From Pseudovirgaria hyperparasitica (lineage: Eukaryota): DNA of 64,000 nucleotides. The position numbers and the translations under genes are program-made. The notes under the pieces were generated by a model. That model saw nothing but the letters and a program-made list of their open reading frames with translations. It was not told the DNA's origin and did not search any database. Positions 13,164-64,000 of this stretch are shown here, one piece after another. The stretch lies in the NCBI GenBank assembly GCA_010093815.1, contig ML996584.1. The stretch is one strand, 5' to 3'. The first letter of the stretch is position 1. Each line of letters starts with the position of its first letter.

Positions 13164-16100
13164 ATGTCTTACAATCGCGTCGGTACGTGCCTCACTCTCT
13201 TTGTTTTCTCTCCCCGTATGACGGCACAGCCTCCAAGAAAACATTTCGCACACGAGACCCTTGTGCATTCTTGTGCATGGAGCTACACTCTAGCCGGCAA
13301 TAGCATCGAGCTATACACTCACTCCCTTTTGCGATCCCTTCATCCATTCATTTGTTTTGCTAACCATATCTTTCTCCCTAGGCTCTGCGGAGGACTATCA
13401 CCCAACAATGGATCCACGCCAACACGATGGCCGCTCGCCTTCTCCAGGTCGCCCCTTGCAAAGCTACCAGCTTGAAGACCGTCCTTATATGCCTCAAGAA
13501 CCTCCACTAGAGATCCCCATGGGTCCTGGGACGCCTGGGGATAGGTTACAGGTACAGCCAACAGTGAGTAGCATGGCGCAGCGACAAAGTGAGGTCGACA
13601 AATCTTAACAACATTTCTGTAGTATTCAGTCGAGAATGTCAGCAACACATACGGTCATAACGAGCAATATAATGACGACCACCACTACTCACCTCACCAA
13701 TACCGCCCGAATAACGACTACGCCCTCTCACCCGAAGAGCACCACGATGCTTATTACAATCAGTCTTACAATCCCGCGCCGCATGGGGGCGATCCTTATT
13801 GGCAGGACGATGATCACCGTCCTATGTTGCAACCAGACAACGCATACGGGCCTGATCCTCATTCAGGACTGAGTCCTCATGATCACCCAGAAAATCCATT
13901 TCAGGATGAGCCACGTCCTACACCAAGTCCGGCGCCGATCAAGAGATGGAAGACGGTCAAAGAGGTGCAACTGTTCAAGGGCAACCTTGTGCTCGACTGT
14001 CCGATTCCACCAAGACTGCTCAATCAAGTTGAACATGCGCAACCTCCCGAGCGTGACGAGTTTACTCACATGAGATACTCTGCTGCGACGTGTGACCCAG
14101 CCGACTTCTACAACGAACGTTTTACTTTACGCCAGAAACTGTTTGCCAAACCCCGCCACACCGAGCTATTCATCGTTATAACCATGTACAACGAAGAGGA
14201 CGAACTCTTCGCACGGACTATGATGGGTGTGATAAAGAACGTGGAGCATATGAATTCGCGCAATCAGAGTAAGACTTGGGGTAAAGATTCTTGGAAGAAG
14301 ATTGTGGTATGTGTCGTAAGCGACGGTCGTGCGAAGATAAACCCTCGCACTCGTGCTCTTTTGGCTGCTATGGGTGTATACCAAGACGGTATTGCCAAGG
14401 AGGCTGTGAACGGCAAGGCAGTGACAGCGCATATCTACGAATACACGACGCAGATGAACCTGGAGATCAAGAAGGGCATAGTTAACGTCAAGAAGGGGAA
14501 CACACCCGTGCAGATGCTATTCTGCTTGAAAGAGATAAACCAGAAGAAAATCAATTCGCATCGCTGGTTCTTCCAGGCATTTGGTAGTGTTCTGGACCCG
14601 AATATCTGTGTCCTGATCGATGCTGGTACCAAGCCAGGAAAGGACTCAATTTACCACCTCTGGAAGGCTTTCGATTTAGAGCCAATGTGCGCGGGCGCCT
14701 GCGGTGAGATCAAGGCTATGCTAGAGCACGGCAAAAAGCTACTCAATCCTCTTGTCGCGACACAGAATTTCGAATACAAGATGAGCAATATTCTTGACAA
14801 GCCTTTGGAGTCAGCTTTTGGGTTCATCTCCGTTCTTCCGGGAGCTTTCTCAGCATATCGCTATGTGGCTCTGCAAAATGACAAAAGTGGAAATGGCCCA
14901 CTCGAGAAGTATTTTGCGGGCGAGAAGATGCACGGTGCGAATGCTGGTGTATTCACAGCCAATATGTATCTGGCAGAAGATAGAATTCTGTGTTTTGAGC
15001 TGGTATCGAAGCGCAATTGCCACTGGATCCTACAGTATGTCAAATCGGCTACGGGTGAAACGGACGTCCCGACAGAGATGGCCGACTTCATCCTTCAGCG
15101 TCGACGATGGTTGAATGGTAGTTTCTTTGCTGCAGTATACGCTCTTGCCCATGCCCTTCAAATATTCAGGAGTGGCCACTCCTTCCTCAGGAAGATGATG
15201 TTCTTGGTAGAATTTTTCTATCAAACCGTTAGCATGATCTTTGCTTGGTTTGCAATTGTAAGAAAGCTCTTGATTTGCGAAAACTGCCTCATACTGATAT
15301 GCTTTAGGGTAATTTTTTCTTGGTATTCCACATCCTAACCAACTCTCTCGGTGACGATGCGTTTTTGGGCACTGCCGGCCGCATATTGGCTGTTATCTTT
15401 GAATGGACTTACATCGCTGTCCTCATAACTTGCTTCATACTGGCCCTCGGTAACAGACCTCAAGGGTCTAACAAGCTTTATATGAGCATGGTGTACTTCT
15501 GGGTCATCATCATGGCGTAAGTCGACGTTGTGCGCAACTCCTATAGGCTTTAATTACTGACACTGATAGCTATCTCATGTTCGCGTCGATCTTCATAACC
15601 GTAAGATCCATTCAAGAGGAAACCAAGGATGGCAGTTTCAAGTTCGGTGACATCTTCACGAACCCTTTATTCTACACTCTAATCGTCTCCCTTCTGTCGA
15701 CCTACGTCCTCTACCTGCTCGTATCCTTTATATTCTTCGACCCGTGGCATATGTTCACATCATTCTTCCAGTACCTGCTCCTGACGCCAACTTATATAAA
15801 CATCCTGAACGTCTACGCATTCTGTAACACCCACGATATCTCATGGGGTACTAAAGGCGATGATAAAGCGGAAAAACTACCGTCAGTCACGGTCAAGGCG
15901 GATGGTAAAGCAGATATCTCTGCACCTACAGATGATGCTGATCTCAACTCTCAATACGAGAAGGAATTAAGACAATTTGCAACAAAGTATGAGGCCCCCA
16001 AGAAGATCCCGACGCCCCAAGATAAGCAAGAGGATTACTACAAGGGTTTCCGTTCAGTTGTTGTTTTGTTGTGGATGTTCTGCAACTTAGCTCTCTGTGC

Positions 16101-16335
16101 TGTTGTCCTTCAAACAGGGGGCTTAGAGATTACTGTGTCAACCGGGGAAGACGCAGATGCAGCTCAACAGAGGAAGGCCACGCTCTATCTTGCCGTTATT
16201 CTTTGGAGTGTAGCAGGCCTCAGCGCCTTCAGATTCATCGGTGCCATGTGGTTTTTAATCGTTAGGATGGTAAGCTACACAATCGGAACACTCGGGAATT
16301 TTTCACTAACCTAGGATTAGTTCCGCGGTGTATAG
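13164..16335 (+). CDS. Chitin synthase, division I (class I-like)
   Basis: Exons 13164-13182, 13382-13563, 13623-15257, 15308-15516, 15570-16269 and 16321-16335. Motifs [40 protein letters not shown] and HDISWGTKG. The MSYNR start and VRMFRGV end resemble class I enzymes. Confidence 0.95.
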
Positions 16336-27587: not shown

Positions 27588-30500
27588 TTAAAATGTCTCG
27601 CTTTCGAAGCTATCGCGGTAACTCGGGATACTCTCTGCAAGAAAAGGCCAAGAATCAGCAAACACGCCCAGACCAAAACTATAAACAACAATAATCCCCT
27701 AGCGCAAGAACCTTCTCATAAAGGACTTACCAGCATCTGCTTCCCTTGCGCTTACTGGCTTCCTCCGTACCGTGCCAATGTTGGCAGCAGGTGTGTTGCC
27801 GCTTCCACTCGTGGCGCCTTGGCCGCTTGTCGTCCTCATCGGGCGTGGCCCCGTGATTTTGCGCGATGGCGAGCTCATGCCTTGGCTCTTGTGTAGACTG
27901 GGGCTGGGCGTGAGGACTTGTCTGTCCGTTTCCAGGCTGTACCTGACCTCCTGGATGGGCTCAAGCGGTGCGAGATGGCCCTGTGAGTACGGTGATGAGT
28001 AGCCTTCGTAACTGCTGCCATACGAACGGCTCGGTGCCGATTGCTCGACTGACACCTTTGGTGCGATTGCTGATTGCTGCTGCTGCTTTGAAGGTGCCTG
28101 AGCTTGTTCGCTTGCCGAATGTCCGCTGTATCCGCCTTCGGAATCGATCGGGCTTAGACTGCGGCCATGGGTGTATCTTTCTGAGCCGCCGCTCAAGCGA
28201 TTGTTACGCCCTAGCACAAGGCTAGGATTTGACCCCCACTGATCAAACTTGTTGTCAAATTCGTCATCTTGTCCGTGTTCGGACCTGGGAGACAGCGGCA
28301 TGTTGCCAAAAGAGACAGCTTGGTTCTCCAGATGTCCAGTACGACGATGCGTCGGACCAGGACGAGGCTGCGGATGTTCGAGATTGAGTGAATTGCGATG
28401 AGCTTTGTACTTGGGATCATCATAATCCTCTTCAGGTATCAACGGTGAAGGAGATCTGCCTTGGCTGCCGCCAAGACTTCGCGCTTGACCTTCACCGAGA
28501 GTAGACTTTGAACGTAGGCGGTCATCGGGGTTCATTCGATAGTCATCATCATCATCATAAAAGTTCAGATCAGCCTGAGATCCAGACCGAGAATGATCAG
28601 AGTATATTTGACTCTTGCGATCTATACTGTTCCGCTCTGGGGCAGTAGACGTCGTCGTCTTGGACCATCGTGAGATCTTGGGTATACCAAAGATTGATGA
28701 TGAGCCGGATTTGTGTTTCCGTTTCGGTGTGTTCTCTTGGCTTTGCGCTGCAAACTGACCTGATGCTTGTGTTGGCGGACTGTTCTCGTGGATCTGCGCA
28801 CGCCGGACTTCTTGAGTTGGGGTAAGAAGTCGTTCGTTGTTCTCGAACCCGACATCCAAGGCACGAGCCTCGTGCTCGTCAAGAGTGTCCTCATCGCCCT
28901 CGAGTACAGTGCTAATGCGGTGCTCGGACCCGCGGCGCCCATCATAGCCAGAATGCATGGCACCGCCGGATTGTCGCAACGATGAAGGATTTGACAAGTA
29001 TCCTGAATGATTTGGCGTTGACGACGTACCGGCCTGTCCGTCAGGCTCATATCCTGCGTCGCCACTAGCTCTAAGGTTCTCGTAGGACGTGAGACTGTGA
29101 GATTGACTCCTGATTTGAGTAAGCTGAGGCTGAGAGGCCGTCTGCATCTCCTTTAATCCTTCAACTTCGCCCAACAATTGCACTAGCATATTCTCGATGT
29201 TAGCCATGTCGTTGGTGCTCTTCGCGCTGAGACCTTTCAGGGCCCGCCTGAAAACATTGCGCCTCTTGGTCGGAAGATCCTCTGATCCATCATCTGTAGA
29301 AGCCTGTCGAGGTATGCGAGGAGATCCAAGCGGTTGTGGGCGAGGACCTTGCAGGATTTTCTGCTCGATACCCACTGCTTTTTGATTGGTGTTTTGCATG
29401 AGGGCAGCATCTTGTACCGCAATAAAACGTTTCATATCCTCGAATTGGTTGCGCATCTCGGCTGCACTGCGCACAAGCGTGACAAGGATCTCAGTATCGC
29501 GAGCATTACGTTGAGCATCTCGCACTGTGAGATGATCCATGAGGGCGACCACGTCCTTAGATTGGATTCTGTCCATGCCCCGACCCGTGGCACTGTCGTA
29601 AAGTGGGGACTCCATTCCGTGAGAATTCATACTCACATGTCTACCGTGCTTGCCAGTCGTGGCGGGACCGAAAGGATCGTCGGCAGCGATGTCAGGAGTG
29701 TATTGGCCTCCTTGTCTCGCGTCTGCATAGTAGTCCCGGACCTGAGAATCGGGCGTGATGGCACCAGCGTGAGCGGCAGAAATATAGCCTTCATCAAGTC
29801 GTAGACTTTGCGGACTGAAAGGATTCTTTGGGTGTGCTGTGGGTTCATCATCATAATCGTCCTCCACGCGAGCATTGTACTCATCCTCCAGAGAAGGTTC
29901 ATAGTTTTGCTGATCTGGAGAATGTTGGTCCTGGTCTCTTTGGATCCGAGCAGCGGCGGCCGCGGCAATACCTGCAGCAGTCGCAGCACCGGCACCAGCA
30001 AGAAGCGTTTTCCCTTGCCCATCGAACTGGTCGATATCCTTTCCTTGGGAAGCGTTGCCTTTCAACGGCGTCACCTCGAGAGGCCAATGAGCCCTATCGC
30101 CTCCATAGTGCTCGCCGCCTAGTGGCCCTTGTATGATTGACGGATTAGTAGTAACCTCGGACTGCTCGTCACTATCGAAACCGTGGCCTATCTCAGGCAT
30201 AGGGTCATGAGCCAGTGGGAGCGCATTTGCAGAAAAATCGATAGGTTCTTCCTGCTCCTCGTGGGCGGAGTGATTGACACTCTGTTGCGGAGAGTTGTGG
30301 GAATTATGCTGCGAGTTCGACTTTGATGAAGACAAAGATCGCGCTGCTTGCTCCTTCAAGGTGCTCCATCTCTCCTTTGTAGGACTCAGTCGACTGGACG
30401 GATCTGCTTCTCTCGTAGTTTGGGGAGATGGCAATTCTTTGGCGAGCTGATCCTCATAGGTAGAATACGCAGAAAAATGACTCTTCTTCTGAGGGCTCAT

Positions 30501-32990
30501 TTCTGACGACTGCCCGCTGACATTCGATGGCTCGTGTAGGGACGCGACAGCAGATTCAACGGCAACTGGAGTGCGCACGTACTCTGGAATCGCACCCACT
30601 CCTCGAATGTCCTGGCCAGCAGTCATCCTATCCATGAAAGGACCGTCGACACTGTCGTCAGTGTATCCGGTATTTCGTTTATAGCTCGTAGGTGATTCGC
30701 CTGCCTCTTCAAGCTCTCGCCGATATCGTTCATTTTCCTCATGGTTTACTTGAAAGAATTCATCGGCCTCCTTTCCAGGTGTTCCATGGTCGCCGCGATC
30801 CCCTAGGATCATACTTGGAGTCTCCAGGGTGACTGCCTTGGGTCGTTCTTTAGCACGTGGCATCTTATAGCTCGGAGTTGAGGTCGCAGAATTCATAGAC
30901 ATATTTGAGTGTTTCCTGTCATAGCCTCTCCCGAGGGACGATACAGATAAAGGACTGCGAGGCGAGTCAACATACTCGCGTCGACCGCCTTGAACGTGTT
31001 CCTCTCTATAGCTGGCATCGCTTTGTACAGGACTGACTTCCCTCGTTGGAGTATACTGAGTGTAGTCGCGATTGATATCCTGCTTTTCTGTAGCATGAGA
31101 TAGTGTTACAGCCCCAGTAACTCCTGCAGCAGTAATTGCGGCAGTCTTTGATCCGGACAAGCTCCGATCGCTTTTGGCACTCCTTGGTAGACTTCCCAGG
31201 GAACGATTGCTGTGCTGGCTATATAAACCCCTCGAGAGAGCGGCAGGAGTTCTTGTTGGTGTCTGAGGATCTGGAGATGTGACAGCGCCGGCTGAGCCAC
31301 GAGAGACTTCGCGGACAGGCGTGTGCTCCCCTTGCGAAGACACTGAACGACGACGACGCTCGGTGCCTGACGACATAATCGAATCCCGGGTAACCTCAGA
31401 ACCGTGCAGAGTGCTTTGCATGGGCATTGGAGGTATGTGTTCATCTCGTTCGGTCCGGCCAACACTCTCAGAGATGCTCGCGCTTCTGCTTCGACTACTG
31501 CTACGATGCTTTCTGTGGTGCTTGCGGTCGACACTTTCTTTGGAGTCATGATGTTTCAGCGCGGCAGCTGTCAGACCAGCACCTATCAGACCAGCTGCTG
31601 CGACCTCACCCTTGGATCGGTGCCGGCTGCCACTGCTCTTCCTACTCTCTGACCGTGATTCTGGTCGCGAATCGCTGGAATCACGACTTGATCTTCTGTG
31701 CTTCCTGCCTTTGATAGAATCGCTAGAGAGCACTACGCCAGGATCATCACCATCTCGGTTGAGCACAACCTTAGGCCTCGATTTAGACATGTCCGGAGCG
31801 CTGGCATGCTTTGACACGCGGCGTTTGAGCTCATCTCGGGAGCTGTACGATCCAACCGAATCTCGTGCAGCCGCCTTCTCGAACTTATCTCTGTTCTTCT
31901 GCGTCTTTTGTTCCTCCTTCAGGGCGTTCAGCTCGGGCAAGATCAATCTTCGTATAGCGTCTTCGACGGTTTGTAAAAGCTTTGGATTGTTGATCGAGGA
32001 CGCTGCCGATACGCCAGATCGCATTGATATGGATTCTCCAGATTTGCGATTCGCATTCGAAGACACAAGGCTCGACTCGGCACTGCCACTTAAGTCGTCG
32101 CCTTTGTGAGACCTACCAGTTCTTCGTGGCGAACTGACGCCTCCGGCTGCGACATCATCTCTGCTTGACTTTCGTCTGCTGGAAGCCTTGACGTCTTTTG
32201 TCACATTCATAGACTCTGCAGGTTTCGCAGTCAACTTCTCCATGACCTTCTGTGTGATGCGCTCGCGACTCAGACTCCTACTACGCTTACGATCTGGCGC
32301 TTTCAATGAGTCCTTGATGATGACCTCTTCCTTCTCTAGGTCACGCTCCAAGCTCTGGCTCCGCCTGCGAGTGATTATGGGAACGAGTGGTCCGTCCAGA
32401 GTGCTGTCCGGTGGCATGGATGATATGGCTGAATCTGTAGGTAGTCGGTGACTCGCAGAAATATCCGACTGCGAGAGATCGCTTGCGTTCTGCAAGACTT
32501 CCACCTCTACCGGCGGCCGATCCGAAATAGCAGATTCGCCCGAATAAGAAAGTTCAGTCGCCTCCCCAGCCTTCTCGTCGGCAGCCTTGTTGCCTAAGGA
32601 TATGCGCCTCGTATACGAAGGCTTCCTGTCTTTCCCAAGCTCTGTGACGCGTAGCTGATCACTTGCGGTTCTTGATCTCTTGTGCGAAGAAGGAGTCACC
32701 CGGACCCGGACGCTCGGTCGTGAATGAACCTTGTCCCCTGTTTTTGCGGCTTCGAAATATTCGATTAGAAGGGATGTCTGGGAGTGATTTGTATGTTTTG
32801 TGAGCGCTCCGTCCTTGTGTCGTTTTGTTGCGATTGTTACCGGACTGCCGTCCTCGGGTATGGAATATGAAGTCTTGTCTGTGGCACGAGATAGATCTGT
32901 AGCTAGGTCGTCGGTAGTGTTGTTTCCGTTATCGACGGAACTGAGGTCTGTGGGAGCTGGTAAGGGAGGTTTGCGCGTGTCTACGCCCAT
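27588..32990 (-). CDS. Large (about 1770 aa) Ser/Arg-rich, mostly disordered hypothetical protein with short helical/coiled-coil islands
   Basis: 5.3 kb open frame. Terminal intron 27730-27635 (GTAAGT...CTGAT...TGCAG) gives the C-terminus DAESIPSYRDSFESETF*. Ordered islands: SQTSLLIEYFE, TVEDAIRRLILPEL and ALMDHLTVRDAQRNARDTEILVTLVRSAAEMR. Confidence 0.88.
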
Positions 32991-35000
32991 CGTGAGGTTT
33001 GGCGCAAGATGTCAGAGGAGAGTGGCGCTCGAGCACATGGATGGCAGGTAGTGAAGTGGTATGAGAGGTTCTATGGCGGCGGCAATGCGGAAAGTCGCGG
33101 GATCGAGAGTGGTAGATTCAGAGCAGGCTGTCAGAGATATGAAGCTATGTTGCTGTAGCTGAAGTGGTATCGTTCTCGAGATTTGCAATTCTCCACTGTG
33201 GAGGGATGTGCACGGATGGCGGAGACAATCGCCTTTAAGCCGCAGACTCAACGACAACACACAGCTCCCGCCTCAACACCAGCAGAACAGAGAGCAATGT
33301 TGGTGAAGAAGACTAGAGCATTTTCGTGTGATTTATGAGCAGAGCTAGCTTGCGACCTTCACAGAGGGATGTTCGCAGGGAGCAGATGTCGAGGTAATAG
33401 TGGGTTGTTGATATGGTGCTCGGTCGGTGCAGGCTGCGGTCACGATGCCGGGTTGCGAACAAAGGCCCTATCGTCGGAGAATTGGATGAAAACGGCTAAC
33501 GGCGATAGCTGAGCACGCTTTTGTGTGGGATGCTGGGACCGGTGGATATAGGGATAAGAGAATGCAGGATCGCAGCAGAAGTATTTGGGCGAAAATGATG
33601 CAAAAAGTAAAAGGTCGAGCGACAAACAACAAAAGTCGGGGGACAGTAGAGGGCAGACGGGGAGGAAGGGCACTAATTCCTGGGCAACAGGGCACTTGTT
33701 GCTTGAGAGAGCGAGCAGTGTAGGGACTTGCAGGACTTGCTGAGTGATGGATGGAGCTGTGTGGGTCGACAACAATGCGCGCTTGGACCTGGCTCGGTGG
33801 GCAGCGGGCTGGGGCACAGCGATCAAAGAGCGATCAAGCGATCAGACTTCGGATTCAGTAGTTAATTAGTTCATGGCTATTATGTCAAAGTAAGCGCAGC
33901 ACAGCAGTATAATCGGTAATATAGAAAGTGATATAGAAGTCCGTAACCAATGGAATGAATCAACAGCTGTAGTACGAGAATATACACTCAGATGTCTGCT
34001 TCCCAGCCTCAGCCCCAGCCACCCTACCCGCACCGCCACAGATGGAGCTGCGGTTGCTCGGGCGGCCGTACCACAGTTTTTTGCTATATCATACTATTAT
34101 AGTGTCTACAAAATATCACCAATCTATAGCCATGTCCACACATCTGTCTGAGCCATGGATCGTCGACATTCTCTCACCGGCAGCATCAAAGGCTCATACA
34201 TGCTTGCACTTTTATGTCTTGAGATCTTGATTCCGCCGTTCTGTTGCCTTACGAGAGAGACCCTTGCTCCGAGAGCAATGCATGCCAGCAATGCACCTCT
34301 TCTTGACGCCATACTCGACGCCTATTGGATCGTGATGCTTGGTCTATCCATGTCTTGAAATGGAGGTGCTGCTTGATCAAGATTTCCCTTTGCTGACTTC
34401 GCTTGACCGCTCCTATTATGTACCATCAACCACACGCTGCCCAAGGTGGTGTGCTATGGATATCAGTAGCAGATGTCTAGAGCAATTTGCATTTCGCATC
34501 GCATCATCTCACCTCTCCATACTTAATGGGTGCAGCAGCATACATGAATCACAGTAGTAGACTCGTACTTCCCCAAACATCTCCGTTTCTAGGCCAACCT
34601 TTCATCTAGCCTCGCGCCTTAAGCCTTGAGGGAAAGGGCCGTATCGCCGGCCGCTGGGCTGAGTGCTGAACATGCTTAAGCGCGACTTTTTGGGGGTGCG
34701 TGGCCTGTCATTGGCCAGCCTGCCCATCCACCACAACTTGACAACTCATCAAAAGACAATCTCGAGCTTTGCACTGTGCGCGGAAAACCTATGGTGCACC
34801 GCCTACGCGCGCCCGTCACACCGTTGAACAACATCTAACTATCGGAAGAAGCCCAGAAGGACAAAAGTCCACCTGAACCAATCACAGATACAATGTCCGG
34901 TGGCCATGAAGAAAACAAAATCTTTTTTTGTGCCGACTTGCGCCAACGCTACTGAATTGTTCCTCCGTCTCCGGCCAGAACGAATCTATCCCACGTCCTA

Positions 35001-37761: not shown

Positions 37762-40700
37762 TTAGAAAGCCAACATCTTGGAGACCGCTCCCTCCCCTCC
37801 CTCGTCTATACTTAGACGTCGAGAAGGAGGAGAGGAGAACTTTGGCGTGGCGACCGCCACCCTATCCTCCGCCAGCTCACCGTGTAGAGTGGCCCCTCCC
37901 ACTACCCACGTGAGGCGCTCCTCAGCGAGGGTAGTGGGAGTTACTGGGCTCACTCTATCCTCCTCCGGCGACGTGCCCGGAGAAGAGATAGCTTGGGTGA
38001 GCTTTGGGAGGGTAGGTGCGGTCGCCACCCTGAGGTCTTTCTCCTGGGTTGGGGAGGCGATGAGGGGAGGCCCAGCAAGATTGCTGGTGTTCTTGGGCTT
38101 CGTGGCCATCGACGAAGCGAGGCCGATGACCTTGGGGTGAGCCCTAGCCACCCCAGGTGCTGCTGCAATGATCGAGGCAGCAGCATCCTGGGGTGTAGAG
38201 CTCACCGAGGGCCGGGAAGTCGATGGAATACCTGTAGAGGTACGTTTTTTGTCGACACCTTCAGCAGCGAAGATGTTTGGCCTGGGAGATGTTGCCGGTG
38301 CGGAAACTCCTGGGAGGGTGGCATGAGCAGGCGTTGGACGAGGAGGTGGTTTCGAAGGTGTGTCAAGAATCAATGTGCTCTCGTCATCGTCATCGCTGTC
38401 TTCTGGTACGGTAAAGGTGGATCCACCTTTGGCATGACCACTCTTGCGTTGCTCAATCTTGACTTGCTCGCTGTTCATGTCGATGCTGGGCGTGTATATG
38501 CTGCTATCATCATCGTCGGTGTCGGGGACAACGAACTTGCCAGAGGTCCTCGATCGGGACGTGGATTTGGAGCGATTGCGATTCTTGGGTGTCTCATCCA
38601 TATACGTAGTAGAGTCGAAAGGTAACTGTGGGAGGTATGTCTGACTCGTGTTGAATCTGCGGTGAAAGATGAGGTTTTCTACGTCGACCAGCTCACTCTC
38701 ACAATATGCTTTGGTGAGCGCTATGCGATTGGCGGATGTGAAGTCGGAGAAGGAGCTGAAGCCCGGTAGCCAGCGCTTCCATTTTTCTTCGTCGCTACAA
38801 TACCACTGCATGTAGCTCGACATATCCAATTGCTGTTTATCAGAGTTATTGCCGAACATCATGAGGAACCACTTGAGTCGCAGGTGAGGAGGTGCGCCAA
38901 GGACTTGATACATAGCGCGACAGAGCATGTGACGCCATGAGAAGATGACCGGGTCCGTGGTGCCATTCGCGTTCGTGAATATCTGCTCAGCCTGAATGTA
39001 CGCTCTTCGAGGTAGTGCTGGCAATTTCTCTCCAGGTCTGCGCAGGTCTGGGACGCCAATTGGCCAGGCCTCAGTTTCGGAAATGTACGTATCGTCCATC
39101 TGGCTATCATCGAAAGCACCAGGCATTGAGTACCGCTTCCGTTTTGATTTTCCGTCCAATTCAGAAAGACCTCTCTTCTGAAGGGTCTCTTGCTCGTCAA
39201 CCGTCTCGGCCTCAAAAGATCTCTTTGCAAGAACTCTGCTGCGGGCTCTTTCTTTCTTTCGCATGCTCTCCGCTTGCATGGATCTTTCTTCGAGAGATTC
39301 CGTTCGGCTTTCGCGAGCAGTCTGTGGTGCAGTATTGTCGTTGCGTTGTTGCATTGCTGAAGCACGTTCAGGACTGGCTTGAGAAGGGCCATGGCTCGCC
39401 ACTCGCGACGTGCGAGATCTAGGCCGTTGTACGGACTGCGACCATCTTGGCGACGTACCTCGTGATCTGTTAGCGACTTGTTGGGTGCCGCTTTGAGATG
39501 TGTTCATTAGTGGCCTGGATGTACTTGGGTACGTTCCAGACCGAGTTGCGCCGTCACGCCACCAGTCTGCTCCGACTCCTGGTTCGTCTCTATCTGTAGA
39601 GGCTTCTGATTCTGCGATATCGGTGGCGGGTTCAATGGTGGGCTCAGTGGCGGATTCAGTGGTGGCTTCAGTGGCGGGTTCGGTGGTAGATTGAGTCGGG
39701 GCTTGCTGTGCAAGGATCCTCTGTCGTTCTTGAGGATTGCGTCGAGCACGGCGGAATGGTGACAGAGCAGCGAGGGTATTGCCTGTGATGGTTCCCACTC
39801 TTCTAAATAGAGAAGACCGCTCGGCTACAGCCCGGCCAGGTCGAGGCTCGGTTTGGGCACGATACTGCTGTTGCTGAGCTTGCTGTGGTGTGTCTGGAGC
39901 TTCCTGTTGCTATTATGGTGTTAGCTGACTGTAAGAGTCTTCATGTCCGATCACTTGAGGGATGAGAACTACCTGCAATGGGAGCTGATGCTCATGTTGG
40001 AAATCAACCTCATTTGGGCCGCGGGACGTGGAGGATCCGGCTTGAAAGGTTGACTGTACGTCTTCGCGGGTCGAATGCACGTTTCGAGGGGTTGACTGAT
40101 CGTTCTGTCGGCTGCTGGAGTCTTGCTCGGCGTTGATACGAACGACAGCTTGCTGAAGCACTTCATGGAGAGCTTCGTCAGTGGCTACTGCACCAGTTCC
40201 GCCGCGGTGGGAGACTGAGACGTCATCAGTATCTTCGTCGGTTTCCGGTTCTGCTCGCTGCGTCGAAGTAAGATCTGAGGGATGAGTGCGACGGTGCATA
40301 TTCGCTGCTCCAGGATCTGGTGAATCTACACTCTGGGTCGACGCCATCATTTTCTTCTTACGGAGTCTTGTGAACGTCGATGGAGATCCGCTTCGTTCGG
40401 CTAAATGACGCAACAATGTGGCGTCGGACATTCGGACGGACGTGATAGCTTTGTTGGAACCGGTAAGAGTAGCCTCGATGATGTGCTCGGAATTGATGTT
40501 GTCGTTTGTCTCGAGAGCTATGAATTCCTTTAGTATGGCGTTCTCACGTACTGCTTTCTTCCATTCGGCATTCTGAAAAAGAACTTTTTGACTGAAAGTG
40601 AAAACCTGTCCTGGAAACATGTGACCGAAGTCGTCCGCTAATAGCTCTTGTGCATCTGAAATGAGAGGGTCGACTGAAGTTTGAAATCGCCTACGTTTTT

Positions 40701-43394
40701 TACCCTCGCGCCTACTTTGACTGCGCCTGATCTTCTGCTCGAAATCATCTAGCTCTTTCTGTGTCTTTGGTAAGGAGCGACGAGAGAAAGGTTCAAGCTG
40801 TTTACCACGGGGCGCCTCGCGCTTCTTACCACGACGACTTGCAGTGCGAACAGCGTAGAAGCCGTCATCTTCAGACTCGTCGGAATTGTCACCGCTGTTG
40901 CTGAGTAGATGTGGCTGTGGATCAAACAAGCGCGACCGACTTTTTTCTGCAGGAGTGTCTCCTGAAACTTCCTTGCCGCCATCAACAGGATTGTTCTGTG
41001 CATCAGTGAGGGGTGGATAGCGCGACCGACTTTTTGCTGCANNNNNNNNNNNNNNNNNNNNNNNNNNNNNNNNNNNNNNNNNNNNNNNNNNNNNNNNNNN
41101 NNNNNNNNNNNNNNNNNNNNNNNNNNNNNNNNNNNNNNNNNNNNNNNNNNNNNNNNNNNNNNNNNNNNNNNNNNNNNNNNNNNNNNNNNNNNNNNNNNNN
41201 NNNNNNNNNNNNNNNNNNNNNNNNNNNNNNNNNNNNNNNNNNNNNNNNNNNNNNNNNNNNNNNNNNNNNNNNNNNNNNNNNNNNNNNNNNNNNNNNNNNN
41301 NNNNNNNNNNNNNNNNNNNNNNNNNNNNNNNNNNNNNNNNNNNNNNNNNNNNNNNNNNNNNNNNNNNNNNNNNNNNNNNNNNNNNNNNNNNNNNNNNNNN
41401 NNNNNNNNNNNNNNNNNNNNNNNNNNNNNNNNNNNNNNNNNNNNNNNNNNNNNNNNNNNNNNNNNNNNNNNNNNNNNNNNNNNNNNNNNNNNNNNNNNNN
41501 NNNNNGTGGTTGAACGAAAGGGCCTGAGACCCGTAAGCGTCGTCCGTAACTTTGACTTGGTCTGCAGTCGCCGGGCTGATCAGTGTATGCTGTGACACGT
41601 GAACGGTGTCCATCAGTGCACTGTCGAGATGTATAGCCCCGTCTTGAGCGCCAGCTGGAGCAGAGGGAGAGAAGAATATGTGCTCACTTGCGCCAGGCGA
41701 GGAATCAATGGATCGGTGCTGGGACACACGACCACTGTTCGTGACTGTCTCTTCGCCGTAAATATCATCTTCGGACCGGACAGCTGGAGGGGAACATTTG
41801 GACGAGCCATGCTCGAGTGCAGGCGACACGTCATGGTCTCTGGTGGTAATGTGACTCTTGGGTGAGCCGTGGCCTTGAGGTTTATCAGAACCTTCATCTT
41901 CGTCCATGAAATTCGACGCATTATCGTGATTGTGATTGTCATTCCCGGCGAACGTAAACCCTCCCCTAGCTNNNNNNNNNNNNNNNNNNNNNNNNNNNNN
42001 NNNNNNNNNNNNNNNNNNNNNNNNNNNNNNNNNNNNNNNNNNNNNNNNNNNNNNNNNNNNNNNNNNNNNNNNNNNNNNNNNNNNNNNNNNNNNNNNNNNN
42101 NNNNNNNNNNNNNNNNNNNNNNNNNNNNNNNNNNNNNNNNNNNNNNNNNNNNNNNNNNNNNNNNNNNNNNNNNNNNNNNNNNNNNNNNNNNNNNNNNNNN
42201 NNNNNNNNNNNNNNNNNNNNNNNNNNNNNNNNNNNNNNNNNNNNNNNNTGACGCATTATCGTGATTGTGATTGTCATTCCCGGCGAACGTAAACCCTCCC
42301 CTAGCTGGAACGGGTTCAGGAGGCAGTGAGCGACGTATCTCATGAGAGTGTTCCCAGGCGGGGTTATCAGGACCTTCGTCCATGACATCATCGTCATTGT
42401 CGCTGTCAGTCCAGGCCGAGCTCTTAGCAGAACCTTCGTCCGAGGAATCCGACGCATTATCGTCATTGCGATTGTCAGTCCAGGCGAATGTAAACTCTCT
42501 CCTAGCTTCAACGGGTTCAGGAGGTGGTGAACGACTTGTCTCACGAGGGTCTTCCCAGGCGGGGATCTTGTCAGGACCTTCGTTCATGAAATTCGACGCA
42601 TTATCGTCATCGTGATTGTCATTCCAGGCGAACGTAAACTCTTCCCCAGCTTCAATAGGTTCAGGAGTCGGTGTACGAGAAGTCCCATAAGGGTTTTTCC
42701 AGGCGGGGATCTTACTAGGATCTTCGTCATCAGACACTCCCTTGACATCTTCGTAGTCACGTAGCTCGCCGTTTGGTAACATATCGGTTATGGTGTCTTC
42801 TGAGAATTGTATGGGTTTTCCATGGATCAAGATGGGGCCATCTTCATCTTCGGATGATTCGGTGTCACGAGATTGCTGAGTCCGATCATTGTGCTGTTCA
42901 GCGTCTTCGACATTCTGTGGCAGCTGGTTGGCAACTCCATCATCGCTCATCTCGACTTCAGGGGACTGAGTCTTGAGGGCAAACTGGGTTTGAGACTGGG
43001 TTACAGAACCACCGGCATTCTCGAGCTCTTCATGGCCCTGGGTTTGGGATTCGGTCGCTTCAATTGACTGCTTGATCTCTTGCTTAAGTTGCTCATCGGC
43101 CATGATGTCATCTTCGGCCTCAGCATGAGCTTCAGCATCGACGTCCTCAGGAATTTCCGAGAAATCCAGGGCTTTTGGTCGTACTCTGCGTCTTCCGCGC
43201 TTGGCTGGAGGCTTTTTGGTGACATTAGCACCCGTCACACTTGACTTAGAGCGAGCAGAAGATCTCTTGGACAGGAGCTTATCCAGATCGTTGCTATCAA
43301 GCAGTGGAGAGGCATTTGATCCAGGCTGATTAGAGCGGGCACGGGTCGTACGGCGGGTGGTCGCAGGAGTAGAGGGTTGCTTTGAGCGCGCCAT
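37762..43394 (-). CDS. Very large low-complexity hypothetical protein with internal tandem repeats, spanning two assembly gaps
   Basis: Starts MARSKQPS at ATG 43394. The repeat copy right after the gap is in the frame of ORF 39913-41907. Intron 39972-39910 (GTAGTT...CTAAC...TAG) joins that frame to ORF 37762-39798. Confidence 0.7.
41042..41505. other. Assembly gap (N run)
   Basis: Run of N. Confidence 1.
41915..42730 (-). repeat. Intragenic degenerate tandem repeat (units of about 144-201 nt)
   Basis: GACGCATTATCGT recurs at 41915, 42250, 42451 and 42595. Peptide unit is PAW...SRxPxPEPxxAxxxFTFAxxDNxxxDNAS. Confidence 0.85.
41972..42248. other. Assembly gap (N run) flanked by identical 57 nt copies
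   Basis: Run of N. 41915-41971 is identical to 42250-42306. Confidence 1.
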
Positions 43395-44740
43395 TTCGAT
43401 GATGAGGTGCAAAGATACTGTAGGAAAGGTTTATAAGGTTCAGAGTTTCTCAATTGAAGAAATGTGAAGTAGAATTGACAAAGAAACGTTGAATAGTGGT
43501 TTCTGTGTAGGTGGGAGAAAGAGAGGCGGAGGCGGCGTGCAGAGATTTTCTGTTTTGACTTACCGCGGGGTCGCGAAATCTGTTTACATGTGCGCGCTCG
43601 TAGCCCAAGGCGACCGGGCCTCGCGTTGCGTGTCGTGATGCTTTTACTTCACTTGAACAATGTTGAAGATGGTGAACAATGGCCGGCGCGTTCTGCCACC
43701 GCCCTCGACAGGACCTTGGCACCGCGCTAGCCACGCGAGCATGCCGAATTTAACCCGACCAATTAGCAACCTTAAAAAGTCACGGGTTGCAGTTGCAACA
43801 ATCAGGCATTTAGATGTGGACTTGGATACTCTATTGCTCGTTTGTTTCTTCATAATACTTTTTGCCGATGTATCATAGTCGCCTCAACGTCCTAGCTCGC
43901 CAAGATAGCATCTTCCATGATATGTAGTACCTCTACTACAATCTATGCCACAAGGCATACCTCTCCTGTATCACACTAACACAAAGACGTCCCCATGACT
44001 CATAAACATCACCCTCTGATCGAGGGAATCTTGCTCAAACATCGCCTTAGGTGTCACAACCTAACTAGGACAAGCAAGCAGCCAAGGATGATGCAGGGAT
44101 GTGAGTCTGAGCATTTACCAAGATCATCCATGTCAACTCCGTCGCGTTAGACTATGCACATCTATATACCGTGCCTGGATCAGCGTTGGTAGATAGGGGG
44201 AGGATCTGGGTATCTGGGCGCACACTTTAGGGAATGAAGTGATCGATCTGCATAAGTTCCGGACGGGCGAGGATGAGCTGGGTGTTGTGGTGGCATAATT
44301 TGATGATAACCGGGTGAGGAGGGCACGTGTCGAAGGGCAGTTGTGAGAGAGGATGAGAAGGATGATCCTAGGCGTCAATGCAGCGTTTTGAACGAGTAAG
44401 CAAGCAGATAGAAAGCAGTACCACCGATTGCTACGCAGAACAGAGGTCTTGGCATGCGAGAAGTGAGAACTAATGAGAATGACACAGATCAAACAGAGTT
44501 CATCTAATGAGTTTTCTATGACACAGACAGACTACGCACCGCACTTACAACATGAACCGAATGTTGTTTTTGGTATACATCGACAGTATTTGTTTCAATG
44601 ATAATACGTACTTACCGCAGCAGCATTGTGTGCACTAGGTACTCCTGGACGCCATTTAATGCAATCAGAGATCAGTTTTGATGGTGAGTGGGAGCAGAAT
44701 TGTTGGGATATCCAATGCTGTAAACTTCTAGGGGTTCGCT

Positions 44741-58202: not shown

Positions 58203-59469
58203 GGTGACGTTGATGACTTGAACACACACTTATGAGATGCGAGAATTCAATTGCGATTGGAAGATCAATATGATAAGATCTCGATGACTGGGCAAACAAA
58301 CTATGTTCACGATGAAGCCAGCCGGTGCAAAACATGCAGACCCGACTCCGAAAGTGGTGATGTTCTGGAAGTGTTCGATGTGGCGCTACTGTGGCTGGGC
58401 GGCCAATCTTAATTTCACGGGACGGGGGCGCGTTTGGGAAGCGTGAATTGGGCAAGACGAAGAGAAGATCTTGTGATTCAGACGTTGGAACTACTGTAAC
58501 TAAGCCTTACCAACCCAAATTTTCACGTGGGATATTCCAACATATTCCCGTCAGTTGGGGGAATGATTCGCAGTTTGCAGGTGATCCACGAGTGTTTCGC
58601 ATGGCTGAAGGCGGGGCGGGCAGTCGTTGAGGCTAGCTAGGTGCAGGCGGGTGACGGGTGTGGGCGATTCCCCCTAGATCCCATGTCGAAACACCAGGAA
58701 ATGAAGATTGTTAATGCGAGGGTAGCAGTAGCATAGGAATCAGGCCTGTAGCTCCACATGAACACGGTATATCCCATAACCCTCTGGGCCCGCTGACGTC
58801 TCTTGTGATCCTTTACTGGTGCGCATTGTCGTGGCATTGCCTACATGTGCCGCTCGTCTTAACGTGGGCTGGAGCTTGATGTATGCCATCTCTGTTCCCT
58901 CGCACCCACACGCGCTCTTCCAGCCTCCATCACCACCTGTCCTGACCAGCTTCCATCTACCAACGCTCGTTTGACTTCTACTATCCTTTATCCCTTACAT
59001 GTCACTGAGTCTACAAGCGCGCAGCTCCGAGAACCTTGCATGTCTGCAGATTTACGGCCCGGCTGTGGATCTTGCGCAACACTCTCATCAACGCCATCTC
59101 ACCTTTCAAAGCCGTGACCGTCGTCCAAGTGCTCAACATACCTTCATTCGACCATCTAGTAGCCTGATTGTCTCGTCAATCGCGCTCTGTCCCCACATAT
59201 GACAGCATTCGAGTCAGACTTACAGTGCTGGTCGCTGTTTAGATCTTGAGACAATATACACATATCACGCCTGAGTGACAACCTAGAAAGACCTTCCACT
59301 ACGTGGCCTCGAAGATCATATCACTGCTCTATTCCCTGATCATCCCTACGGAGGCCGTGTGCCTTCTTGATCACTTAGAAAAGGCCCTCAAGTCTGGAGT
59401 CTCTATACGTCAATTCGCAGCTCGAAGCCATTAATTGGGATCGATAGTACATCGATACGCGCATCTGCA

Positions 59470-62400
59470 ATGGCTTACGACTCGCACGCAGACTACCAAG
59501 CGCCGCCGCGACGATACATGGACCAAGGAGCGCAGCAGCGACCACCTTCAAACCAAAGGAACAACGCGTACAGTGGGCAACATCAGGGAGAATACGCATA
59601 TAATGACTATGGATATCAGCAAGATTTCTACGGACAGCAACAATATGGCTCAAAGCCGACTCAAGTCAATCGAGGTCCCAGACCACCACCACGACAACAA
59701 CCACAACACCAACAAGAGTATCAGCAAGACGAGCTTGGTTATGGGGATCTTATCAGCGGGTATGAGGAGAGCAGCCAACAGGCTCCAAGAAATCAGGGTC
59801 CTTCAAGAGCCGCTGTACCTCGACAGCCAATATCCCGCCAAGATCATTCCTATGGGTATGATGAGGGATATATTGAGCAGAACAATGGGTATGAGCAGCA
59901 GTCCAGACGTCCTCCACCAGGCCCTCGGCAGCATTCTGGGGGTCGTGGGCCTCCTATGCGGGGACCGCCGCCTCCAGGCTATCATCCGCAGCAGAGTATG
60001 GGTCGAGGAGGAAGGCCACCACCTGAACAACGTCCAGATCCAAGGGGTTCTGCAAATCAAAGTAGAGCTCGTCCCCCGCCAAACTTCGAAGGCCGTCCAC
60101 CTTCTGATCAGCCAGGCAACAGACCACCGAGTAAGTAACGTGGATATAGTGCATCGCATAATTCGCCTGACAAGGTTACAGCTCGCGAGCGCATACTAAA
60201 TAAGCAGCCACCGCTGAAATTGTCTCAAGACAATGCTTTTCCAACTTTTGGGGCGACGAAAGCAACTCCGCCGGCGGCGGAATTGGAGAACCCGATGGCC
60301 AAGCTGAATATCCAAGACGCACGGGGGAGTGAGGATCGCGCGCGACCACCTACATCTGCAAGCCATAAGAGTAATGGATCAATGAGAGGCCCACCACAGA
60401 ATGGATTCCATGATTCGGGCTACCAAGACAGTTTTGAACCTCCATTTACTCAACAGCGCCCAGGCTACGCGTCCAAGGACAGCTTCAACTCAAGGCCCTC
60501 ACTAGACAGCTCACGCGATACGCGCTCATCTCAACAGCGGAACTCTCCACCAAGGCCACCGCCTCTCAACCTCGGGACCAATCAGGCAGAGCGTGTAAGC
60601 GGCAGCTCACATCATCTAGCGCCTTCATATAGTACTTTTGGTCCCATATCGAGGGCTGCAACTATGCCGAATAACAGCTCAGCTGATTCTAGGCTATCTC
60701 AGCCTCAGCAACAATGGGCCCGCGCTCAGACCGATAGCTACCAAGGCCCTGCTTCACCAAGCTACATGGGTCGCCCATCTACTGCGAGTGGATCAGGTCA
60801 AAACTGGAACAGCAGGCCCACCACGCAAGATGCCCAAAAATACAAGGCCTTCACATCGCCCAAGTATGAAACCCAGGATCCTCTCGATCTAAATCATACG
60901 AGAGATGAAAGTCTTTCGGATCTCTACGACGACTACGCATACGACGATGATTCGAAGCACACGCGTACAAATAGCAGGGAGGAGGCTATCGAGTTGGAGA
61001 TGCCAAACTTCGATGCGATACCAGCAGCTAGCAGCCCTCGATTTACGCTACATTTCAATTCGCCAACGTTCAATGTGGCGCCCTCAACAGACTTACCAGA
61101 GGTTGATGATGGGAACGGCTTTTACAAGCAGGCCAAAATGAGTCGTTCACAGCCGGACCTACGGGCTCAGGCACGGGAGGGATATCACCAGTACAATGGG
61201 AACAACGTCCCTCCTATGCCACGCGGCAACATGACTCCAGCTCCACGCGGGCGTGGAAGCGGATCGGGGCCAGGACCGAATATGAATGGCGGTTATGGCC
61301 ACAGAGAAGGACCAAGAGGCGCACCAGGACCTCACGGACATGGTATGGACAAGCCGCAATCTGATTTGGATACTACTGACCAGTTTCAATACTCAGATTT
61401 GGGTTCTCGCTCTTCTATGGATATTCAAAGACCTAGTATGCAAATGAACGAGCCACATTACAGCAATCCAGACGCTTTGCCTTCGCATCCTGTTCCAGTA
61501 CGGCTTGGGCTAAACGACTCTACCAGTCCCTCGAACAGCAATCAAGGTCCACACCGACCTCCGCCTGTCCGACAATACAATGATCCTGCCACTGCGCGGA
61601 ATTCAGTGGGTGGCACCTCAATACCGGTCACTCACGACGAATTGAACAGGTTACGAACTGTTGTTTCAACAAATCCCCACGATCGAAAGTCGCAGCTTCT
61701 CCTCGCAAAGAAGCTCGTTGAGGCAGCACGCGTTCTAGCCGACGAAGGAGGCTCAGTTGACATAAAGACACGAAACAAGAATCGGGAGAGATACATTTCC
61801 GAAGCCCACAAGAACGTCAAGAAGCTCGTCACACTTGGTTATCCCGAAGGGATGTTCTATATGGCAGACTGCTATGGTATGGGTCAATTAGGCCTCGAGG
61901 TAGATACCAAGGAGGCCTTCAATCTTTATCAGGGAGCGGCGAAGATGGGCCACGCGCAGTCCGCGTATAGAACTGCCGTGTGCTGCGAGATGGGAGCCGA
62001 GGAAGGCGGTGGCACGCGCAAAGATCCACAGAAGGCTGTGCAATGGTACAAGCGTGCCGCTGCTCTGGGTGATGTTGCTGCCATGTACAAAGTCGGTATG
62101 GTACTTATGAAAGGCTTGCTTGGCCAGCAAAAGAATATGGGCGAAGCTGTCAACTGGCTCAAACGTGCCGCAGAACGTGCAGACGCGGAGAACCCCCATG
62201 CGCTGCACGAGCTTGGTCTCCTGTATGAAGGTGTCTCGACTAACGCGTCTGGTCCGGTCATACGTGACGAGAATCATGCAGGTCAACTGTTTCGGCAGGC
62301 TGCAGAATTAGGATACAAGTTCTCGCAGTTCAGACTTGGCCAAGCTTATGAATATGGCCAGCTTGGTCTACCAATTGACTCTCGAAACAGTATTGCTTGG

Positions 62401-62831
62401 TATACGCGCGCTGCGGCGCAAGGCGAACATCAGAGCGAACTGGCCTTGAGTGGCTGGTATTTAACTGGCAGTGCTGGTTTGATCGAACAGAGTGATACGG
62501 AGGCATATCTGTGGGCTCGAAAGGCGAGTACGGCAGAAGTTCCGTTACCCAAAGCAATGTTTGCCATGGGTTACTTCACTGAAGTGGGCATTGGATGTCC
62601 AAGAAGTCTAGAGGAGGCGAAGAAATGGTATGGGAGAGCTGCAGGTATGTCGTGCGAAACCCCCCGGCGTTGCGGGATTTTATATTGACACTTTGCCTAG
62701 CACATAAATTTCCGAAAGCACAAGAACGTCTCGAGGAATTGAAGAAGGGTGGCATGAAGGCACAAAAGAGTCGTGAGAGATTGAGTCGTACCGACAGAAA
62801 GCAGCAAGACGAGAATTGTGTTGTCATGTAA
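59470..62831 (+). CDS. Chitin synthase activator Chs4/Skt5-like (Sel1 repeats, C-terminal CaaX)
   Basis: Exons 59470-60130, 60182-62644 and 62701-62831. Long P/Q/G-rich N-terminus, Sel1-like repeats (AVQWYKRAA, AWYTRAAAQG, ELALSGWYLTG) and a CVVM* prenylation motif. Confidence 0.9.
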
Positions 62832-63702
62832 GGGACCATGTCCTACTTCCTGCTACCTTTGTATTATTGCCGACTGCGTCTGAAATGCCCTGTATTGAAG
62901 ACCATCTCTCCGATTTGCGTGGAAGGCGTTTCATCTCGAAGCTCTCGCGATCATTTGAAAAGGCGTTATCCGGGTGTACAGCTGTATGTTTAGGACGTGA
63001 AAGGACCGAAGATATGTAGCAGGCTATGTCTACGTTTGGGGCGGAGTTTGGCGCATACAAGCCACCAGAAATGAATATATGGAGGTATGCACCGCAATGT
63101 ATGAGGCTGATTACGGGGTATATAACCTGCATCGGACTCCGTTCGTGCACTGACAGGGGCGAGTGCCAAGAGCCTGCCTGCACGTGTCAACAAACGAAGA
63201 CGCATCATGGATGCAACACGATGAGTTCGAGTTCATGTGGAATGTCAACACTTTCTTGCTACTGCCGACAGGAGTGAAGTCAAATGAAGCATATGATAAT
63301 CCTCGAAGCACTGAGATTGGATGAGCAGGTACCAAATTGTCCGTACATGGAGACTCTGACTTACAACCGCATAGCATCGAGCATCAAGTCGGCCACAGAC
63401 AACAAACAATCTGCAGCTCTCAAACTTCCTCCGCCGGATGATTATGAACCCGTGCACTTTCAAATCTGCAATATGCAGATCCCCTACACATGTGCTTCCA
63501 TTGACGCCCTCTCCTGAAGCAATCTTCCCATGTATATAATGAGTCCAAATCTACACCTGATGCTTTTCCGTCTCATCACACTCACTCACATCCACTCTAC
63601 AACACATTCACTTACTTTCCTTTACTACTACAACTTACTACATTCACTCTTTACAACACTTTCAAGCCTTTTCAAAGCCTCACATAAAACAACATCCTTC
63701 AC

Positions 63703-64000
63703 AATGCGTGCTACTGCAGTCCTCATCGCCATCTTCGCGAGCTCCGCGCTTGCAGCTCCTCTCAACGCTGTAAGCTCCCCTAACGATCCCCCACCTTTTC
63801 ACAATTCTCCACTGCCTTTTACAGGTGGTCCATCTTGCCGGAATATGCAGCTAACTCAATACTACAGGCCCGCCAAGCTGGAGAGGCTGATGGCTACTCC
63901 TATGGCTACGGCCACGACGTGAAGAGCGGCCATGGCGAGCATAAGCGTCAAGGTCCCGGAGGCGAAGACTATGGCTACGGCTATGGTATGGAGAGCAAGA
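63703..64000 (+). CDS. Secreted repeat protein, probable Kex2-processed peptide precursor (3' truncated by window)
   Basis: Signal peptide MRATAVLIAIFASSALA-APLNA. Intron 63770-63867 (GTAAGC...CTAAC...TACAG). Exon 2 reads ARQAGEADGYSYGYGHDVKSGHGEHKRQGPGGEDYGYGYGMESK and is open to the window end. Confidence 0.75.

Follow-up and report, generated by a model that had tools for sequence, protein, structure and literature searches.

A spliced gene for a probable Kex2-processed repeat protein with nine identical Tyr/Gly cores in Pseudovirgaria hyperparasitica

The right-hand edge of a 64,000-nucleotide stretch of Pseudovirgaria hyperparasitica DNA (hereafter the window; G000:C20:270201-334200 in a searched genome of 35.4 Mb and 122 contigs) raises a question in two parts: does the reading frame cut short by that edge belong to a real precursor of secreted peptides, and, if so, what kind of peptide would be released from it? 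An initial annotation, made from the letters of the window alone, had placed a hidden, spliced precursor of Tyr/Gly repeat peptides there and had considered that it might be of the dikaritin (RiPP) type. Its locus was correct, but not its exact starting point of 63703: the ATG of the precursor gene lies one base to the right, at 63704.

The gene is on the plus strand. A TATA-like box (TATATAA; 63533..63539, +), followed by a C/A/T-rich leader, is located about 165 nt 5' of the ATG and, from its sequence, may act as the promoter. Exon 1 (63704..63769, +) contains 22 codons, which encode a predicted signal peptide (63704-63754) and the start of a propeptide. A 98-nt phase-0 GT..AG intron follows (63770..63867, +); its donor reads GTAAGC, its branch site GCTAAC (63850-63855) and its acceptor TACAG. 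Eleven GT..AG pairings would preserve the frame of the repeats, and this is the one with both a consensus donor and a branch site; without splicing, the frame reaches a stop after 72 codons. Exon 2 begins at 63868 and continues past the window edge (63868..64000, +). The whole exon, G000:C20:334068-335264, comprises 398 codons (product P0001) and a TAG stop at G000:C20:335262-335264, giving a spliced product of 420 aa.

Exactly positions 63770-63867 were missing from contigs of both public runs, X1 and X2 (joint 770->869 of L004), the shorter flank of the joint being 192 and 255 letters long in the two runs. Because the contigs skip the exact intron in both runs, the intron proposed initially can be regarded as established and the precursor gene as transcribed and spliced; it is a real, spliced gene. 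The run contigs span most of exon 2, to about C20:335601. The two runs represent one sample from one study, and their type is unrecorded, yet two GT..AG introns are missing from their contigs; as contig depth is no basis for ranking genes, the runs show transcription and splicing, not expression level. A 46-nt GT..AG intron was spliced at window 63329-63374, between the precursor gene and an upstream Sel1-repeat gene that we take to be Chs4-like, and a single run contig, some 4.9 kb long, crosses this splice and reaches exon 2 of the precursor gene. This arrangement suggests that the upstream gene has a long or read-through 3' UTR over the precursor promoter; the contig is no proof of one transcript.

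The spliced protein consists, in order, of the signal peptide, a short propeptide to Arg24, a variant unit, nine main units, and a 142-aa acidic tail. The signal peptide was predicted by rule at residues 1-17 (one basic residue, an h-region with a window-11 hydropathy of 2.49, and A-x-A at 15-17), as the initial annotation had anticipated. Variant unit 0 (residues 25-49; 63874..63948, +) opens with Gln after a single Arg, carries a GYSYGYG core and ends in KR. Unit 1 of the nine starts within the window (63949..64000, +), with its QGPGGEDYGYGYG core at 63949-63987. These correspond to the two units quoted in the initial annotation, and both are present in the spliced frame; its KR-delimited repeats then continue beyond the window edge for eight more KR units (units 2-9, to C20:334835, +) before the tail. 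The main units together occupy residues 50-278, each with 25-26 aa divided among the invariant QGPGGEDYGYGYG core, a variable linker of 10-11 aa (His/Glu/Gly/Lys), and KR. All nine begin with Q-G-P, variant unit 0 alone beginning with Q-A, and all nine contain ED-YGYGYG. The acidic tail (residues 279-420; C20:334836-335261, +) again opens with Gln; it contains one RR site and three copies of the NPLAALAP motif set in spacers rich in Glu and Lys.

KR ends each of the ten units, and Gln, already noticed at the start of each unit after a basic site, directly follows 11 of the 12 predicted Arg, KR or RR cuts. Gly makes up 31% of the repeat region, Tyr 12% and His 9%; the net charge of the repeats is -10, and the predicted released peptides have a pI of 4.65-5.26. 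Cys and N-glycosylation sites are absent from the spliced protein, as are hydrophobic segments past residue 25 (maximum window-11 hydropathy there, 0.17), and a Pfam scan of the exon 2 product returned no family. A GPI anchor, membrane segment or enzyme domain in the tail was ruled out on the latter two results; the frame past nt 64000 also does not close early, the other outcome that the initial annotation had considered fatal to its proposal.

The repeats carry a clear record of constraint. The nine KR+QGPGGEDYGYGYG stretches have a single protein sequence but nine distinct DNA sequences. Across the copies, each of the 15 core codons shows third-position variation, and first and second positions are constant; pS and pN are 0.62 and 0 in the core, versus 0.64 and 0.21 in the linker. 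At least 18 changes are required among the core copies, every one at a third position. Only 31 of the 135 possible single core changes are synonymous, and the probability that all 18 would be synonymous under neutrality and independence is about 3e-12, a rough value given that the copies are related. Variation that is synonymous alone implies a peptide under selection, and DNA sequences that differ among all nine cores imply that the copies are old, not a fresh product of slippage. The KR of the units is likewise invariant in the protein, with synonymous changes only, in nine of nine units, and Gln comes next each time. These patterns indicate that selection preserves the N-terminal 13-mer together with the KR site while the linker drifts, and they point to a repeat array that is not due to chance.

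A predicted signal peptide, at least three near-identical repeats (here nine identical cores and one variant), and KR between the repeats characterize Kex2-processed repeat proteins (KEPs). Umemura's filter for such proteins further uses KR, RR or KK as Kex2 sites and allows no piece of more than 100 aa; the longest piece predicted here has 99 aa. Judged by its sequence, the precursor is probably a KEP, cut into about ten short peptides. The architecture would thus be of a known kind, and what appears new is a repeat sequence without a match in the searches made. Umemura (2020; PMC7329392) reported 7878 KEPs, 2560 of them stand-alone. At about 5 per ascomycete genome, KEPs are common; for most of them no function is known, and another one is therefore no surprise. 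DUF3328 was found near 22% of those KEPs, at a mean distance of 3.09 genes; the other 78% had no DUF3328 within 15 genes, and Tyr still occurred in 38.2% of their repeats. KEPs without DUF3328, as described by Le Marquer (2019; PMC6339444), Umemura (2020; PMC7329392) and Vogt (2022; PMC9769878), resemble the precursor in having a signal peptide, at least three KR-bounded near-identical units, a second repeat type, Gln-initiated units, and no linked cyclase. The precursor differs from known KEPs in its repeat sequence, which had no match in protein searches, and would be a stand-alone KEP.

We scanned 97 of 143 long ORFs around the gene (36 of 46 in the window and 61 of 97 in a 60-kb stretch that starts at the gene and extends rightwards); most of the omitted ones were antisense or overlapping frames. 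Leftward of the precursor gene lie the Sel1-repeat gene and one for a Trp/Tyr-tRNA synthetase. Rightward come genes for a PDR ABC transporter, a Zn2Cys6 factor, a NIPA transporter, V-ATPase subunit E, an AMP-binding enzyme and an MFS transporter, along with housekeeping genes. Of the 97 ORFs scanned (window plus 59 kb beyond), none matched UstYa, a tyrosinase or a peptidase. For the window itself this agrees with the initial annotation; the tailoring genes that it expected to the right did not materialize in the scanned ORFs of the 59 kb beyond. Nor was the UstYa-type HxxHC context present among 17 loose matches in 123 kb (the strict pattern recovers 8 of 12 true loci). Genome-wide, the UstYa search gave at least 27 matches, grouped into 12 loci, and the nearest of these matches, at C20:731240, is about 396 kb from the precursor gene; of 19 tyrosinase matches in the genome, none is on contig C20. 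As a positive control, about 10 kb on each side of the 12 UstYa loci was inspected: clear KR-repeat precursors were present at three (on C11, C19 and C29) and a repeat ORF lacking KR at a fourth (on C10), whereas eight had no repeat precursor within that distance. With clear KEPs beside UstYa at three loci, this genome keeps dikaritin-like precursors near their cyclases, and the QGPGGEDYGYGYG gene is by position not one of them. The introns and the Zn2Cys6 and UstYa genes suit a filamentous ascomycete.

The repeats themselves give a mixed answer. Like UstA, PhomA and AprA, the precursor has Kex2 repeats, an acidic ED before Tyr and a Tyr-rich core, and a Tyr core follows an acidic leader in nine of nine units. 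Unlike them, it has no linked peptidase, no UstYa/DUF3328 gene within about 15 genes or 10 kb, and no linked tyrosinase of the ustiloxin/phomopsin type; it also has an N-terminal Gln and a His-rich follower of 10-11 aa. We know of no dikaritin repeat with a long His-rich follower like this one. The ED-Y junction is not diagnostic of a dikaritin, because the repeats of unlinked KEPs so often contain Tyr (PMC7329392). EDYxI, the core motif of ustiloxin and phomopsin precursors (PMC6339444), is replaced by EDYGY in all nine units. Together with the distance to the nearest UstYa match and the lack of tyrosinase matches on the contig, this counts against the dikaritin reading of the initial annotation.

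We give an even chance to the following scheme: the gene encodes a stand-alone KEP that yields about ten linear, pGlu-capped secreted peptides, of which the N-terminal 13-mer (pQGPGGEDYGYGYG) would be the working part, serving as an extracellular signal or effector. Along the known KEP pathway, the precursor would enter the ER by way of its signal peptide; Kex2 in the Golgi would cleave behind every KR; a Kex1-type carboxypeptidase would trim off the basic C-terminal residues; and a glutaminyl cyclase would cap the exposed Gln as pyroglutamate. The resulting 22-24-mers would be released through exocytosis, and their variable C-terminal linker may be trimmed by exopeptidases. The weakest step is the last, in which the capped core would act, with no side-chain cyclisation, as a diffusible extracellular ligand or effector on the fungus's own hyphae or on other organisms. 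We infer cleavage, capping, secretion and function of the peptides.

The genome contains enzymes suited to this pathway. A single kexin is encoded on C17, with a P domain, a membrane anchor, an acidic tail and what we take to be the catalytic motifs. A glutaminyl cyclase gene is present on C14 (L053; E 2e-23 to solved QC-family chains). Nine M28 loci had been considered for this role and were by eye unlike a glutaminyl cyclase; L053 then fitted. Precedent exists for the predicted products: KEP peptides that begin with Gln were detected in linear form, carrying pyro-Glu and trimmed at the C-terminus, and in axenic culture six kep knockouts had no phenotype (PMC9769878). The splice, Gln after nearly every predicted cut, a core pN of zero beside a drifting linker, and a neighborhood free of cyclase and tyrosinase all speak for a stand-alone KEP, as do the kexin and glutaminyl cyclase genes, the pyro-Glu precedent (PMC9769878) and the occurrence of Tyr in unlinked KEPs (PMC7329392). 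Against it, identical cores would suit stacking or enzyme recognition equally well, the ED-Y motif is like that of dikaritin leaders, and expression is known from one sample.

In a rival reading, an unlinked UstYa, with or without a tyrosinase, would cross-link Tyr in trans into a cyclic peptide as in asperipin-2a, and the precursor would be dikaritin-type, with a QGPGGED leader and a YGYGYG core. The eight UstYa loci that lack a repeat precursor mean that spare cyclases exist, and action in trans is therefore possible; the ED-Y junction recalls EDYxI (PMC6339444), three Tyr stand at i, i+2 and i+4, internal Tyr make asperipin bicyclic (PMC9233826), and a Zn2Cys6 factor and an ABC transporter adjoin the precursor gene. 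We nevertheless judge such cyclisation improbable: the nearest UstYa match is far outside the usual spacing of linked DUF3328 genes (PMC7329392), the same genome has clear KEPs next to UstYa genes at three of its 12 loci, including one with a tyrosinase, core position 3 is Tyr and not Ile, and the long follower is not known from dikaritin repeats. An unusual alpha-type mating pheromone precursor would also be single-copy with identical cores, and lack of DUF3328 linkage is typical of pheromone KEPs (PMC7329392). This identity is nonetheless extremely improbable, as the Ste13 dipeptides XA/XP do not follow KR in any of the nine main units, the protein is free of Cys, and neither a two-Cys nor a PYG[L/M]P[I/V]G core (motifs as given in PMC6339444) occurs.

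Stacking is the basis of a structural explanation, which we consider possible but unlikely: Kex2-released YGYGYG strands would assemble into amyloid-like or coacervate wall or matrix material at acid pH, their His/Glu linkers binding metals and general oxidases cross-linking Tyr, much as with Rep1 but by a polar Gly/Tyr zipper. The synthetic peptide GY7 (Ac-GYGYGYG-NH2) forms fibrils and retains Cu, Ni, Co and Zn (PMC8163036, PMC10510724), and the DYGYGYG of the core is one residue away from it, with alternating Gly and Tyr, three Tyr, and a match at 6 of 7 residues; the Gly-, Tyr- and His-rich composition and acidic pI of the repeats are also consistent with such a material. In Ustilago maydis, the repeat protein Rep1 is cut by Kex2 into peptides that form amyloid in the wall (PMC3133707), and like the precursor it is a pre-pro-protein with Kex2 sites that give about ten peptides and a larger piece. 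The Rep1 peptides, however, have 34-53 aa and are amphipathic (PMC3133707), whereas those predicted here have 22-24 aa and are polar and acidic, with no amphipathic segment like that of repellents at the low hydropathy found past residue 25. GY7, moreover, is a prion-inspired 7-mer, used at 500 uM and with capped ends because of a higher critical concentration (PMC10510724); the precursor motif is natural and has a Pro/Gly/acidic leader before it and a charged, His-rich linker after it, in repeats of net negative charge. In a single-sequence AlphaFold model, each repeat contributes two stacked strands, KR stretch included, but the model counts for little because its mean pLDDT is 53 and a fold search with it gave no match at E <= 0.001. 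To the more specific version, in which pGlu peptides with a Gly/Tyr zipper and His/Glu arms would form a secreted, metal-binding (Cu/Zn) functional amyloid of the ascomycete wall or matrix, made from a pheromone-style precursor and with no known relative, we assign a small chance; the gene would then be a natural source of GY7-like material. The same model, with strands running through the KR stretch, and the hydrophilic, charged tail could instead describe a largely uncut Gly-rich secreted protein, either a beta-solenoid of repeats or a hydrophilic matrix protein. That is very doubtful: a KR that varies only synonymously in every main unit, always with Gln next, has the character of a cleavage site under selection, and the model is of low confidence (pTM 0.42).

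Relatives of the precursor were sought with the exon 2 product alone (P0001), the signal peptide being excluded. No homologue was found among proteins of 218-697 aa at E <= 1e-5, and neither residues 1-110 of P0001 (against shorter proteins) nor residues 256-398 gave a match at E <= 10. Proteins longer than 697 aa were covered solely by a search of 1.84 billion representatives, in which three weak matches were on reading compositional. The PDB sequence search gave no match, and the Atlas search gave one, at 0.77, a lead at most. A DNA pattern located nine metagenome loci; the motif is in frame in two of them, once each in a 752-aa ORF, and is a repeat in none of the nine. Within the genome the gene is single-copy (one match), and nine scattered single EDYGY-coding matches outside it, versus four for a control pattern, were taken as chance and not as paralogues. 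At 90% identity, the neighboring tRNA synthetase (TrpRS) forms a single-member cluster in the protein collection, so close relatives seem to be absent from it and blank homologue searches carry little weight. TrpRS itself is in the collection, where the precursor had no self-match; the precursor gene may be absent from the deposited annotation or may have been withheld.

In the literature, no text was found that links YGYGYG with a fungal secreted peptide, and no such peptide appeared among the matches listed for GYGYG, as judged by title and start of abstract. GYGYG is absent from the supplements of PMC6339444 and PMC7329392, as are the control motifs YAIG and YVIP (the large table consists of accessions), so these absences carry no information; an accession in that table could stand for the precursor or a relative. 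In the searches made, the repeat sequence was not found elsewhere, which is weak evidence of uniqueness.

The precursor makes a good test case, with a splice that has been shown, an exact 13-residue core under apparent selection, predictable peptide masses, and a capping enzyme in the genome. For the linear pGlu forms stripped of their basic C-terminal residues, the calculated monoisotopic masses are 2242.89, 2306.91, 2309.93, 2347.94, 2402.98, 2410.94, 2485.98, 2498.02 and 2500.00 Da, the last shared by two units. Self-assembly or metal binding would make the peptides nature's equivalent of a designed amyloid; cyclisation would show that dikaritin cyclases are able to work on a precursor to which they are not linked, one that cluster-based genome mining would miss.

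Several other features of the window and genome were observed. ORFs of 1770, 715, 780 and 605 codons at window 27702-33011 (-) and 37765-43430 (-) had no Pfam match at E <= 0.001. A chitin synthase gene (13623-16311, +) and the Sel1-repeat gene (59371-62831, +) share the same 50 kb with the precursor gene, probably by coincidence. On C11, a UstYa gene lies beside a KEP with four Tyr-free repeats, KR-GSPVPPLFDGGVD (G000:C11:510300-512100; L023, L024). On C29, three UstYa genes lie beside a signal-peptide KEP with four 40-aa repeats that contain AVNYILVLQKA (G000:C29:14700-20962; L019, L020). Just 3' of the UstYa match at G000:C10:1082397-1083130 (L032), an ORF has acidic repeats of about 47 aa with PQEGY and no KR, possibly a precursor cut by another protease. 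On C19 (L029, L030), two UstYa genes and a tyrosinase gene at 555071 occur together with a precursor, near 552262 (+), in which KR-DLVDDDVVYPDY is repeated about 11 times; the region G000:C19:548321-555667 is likely a dikaritin-type cluster.
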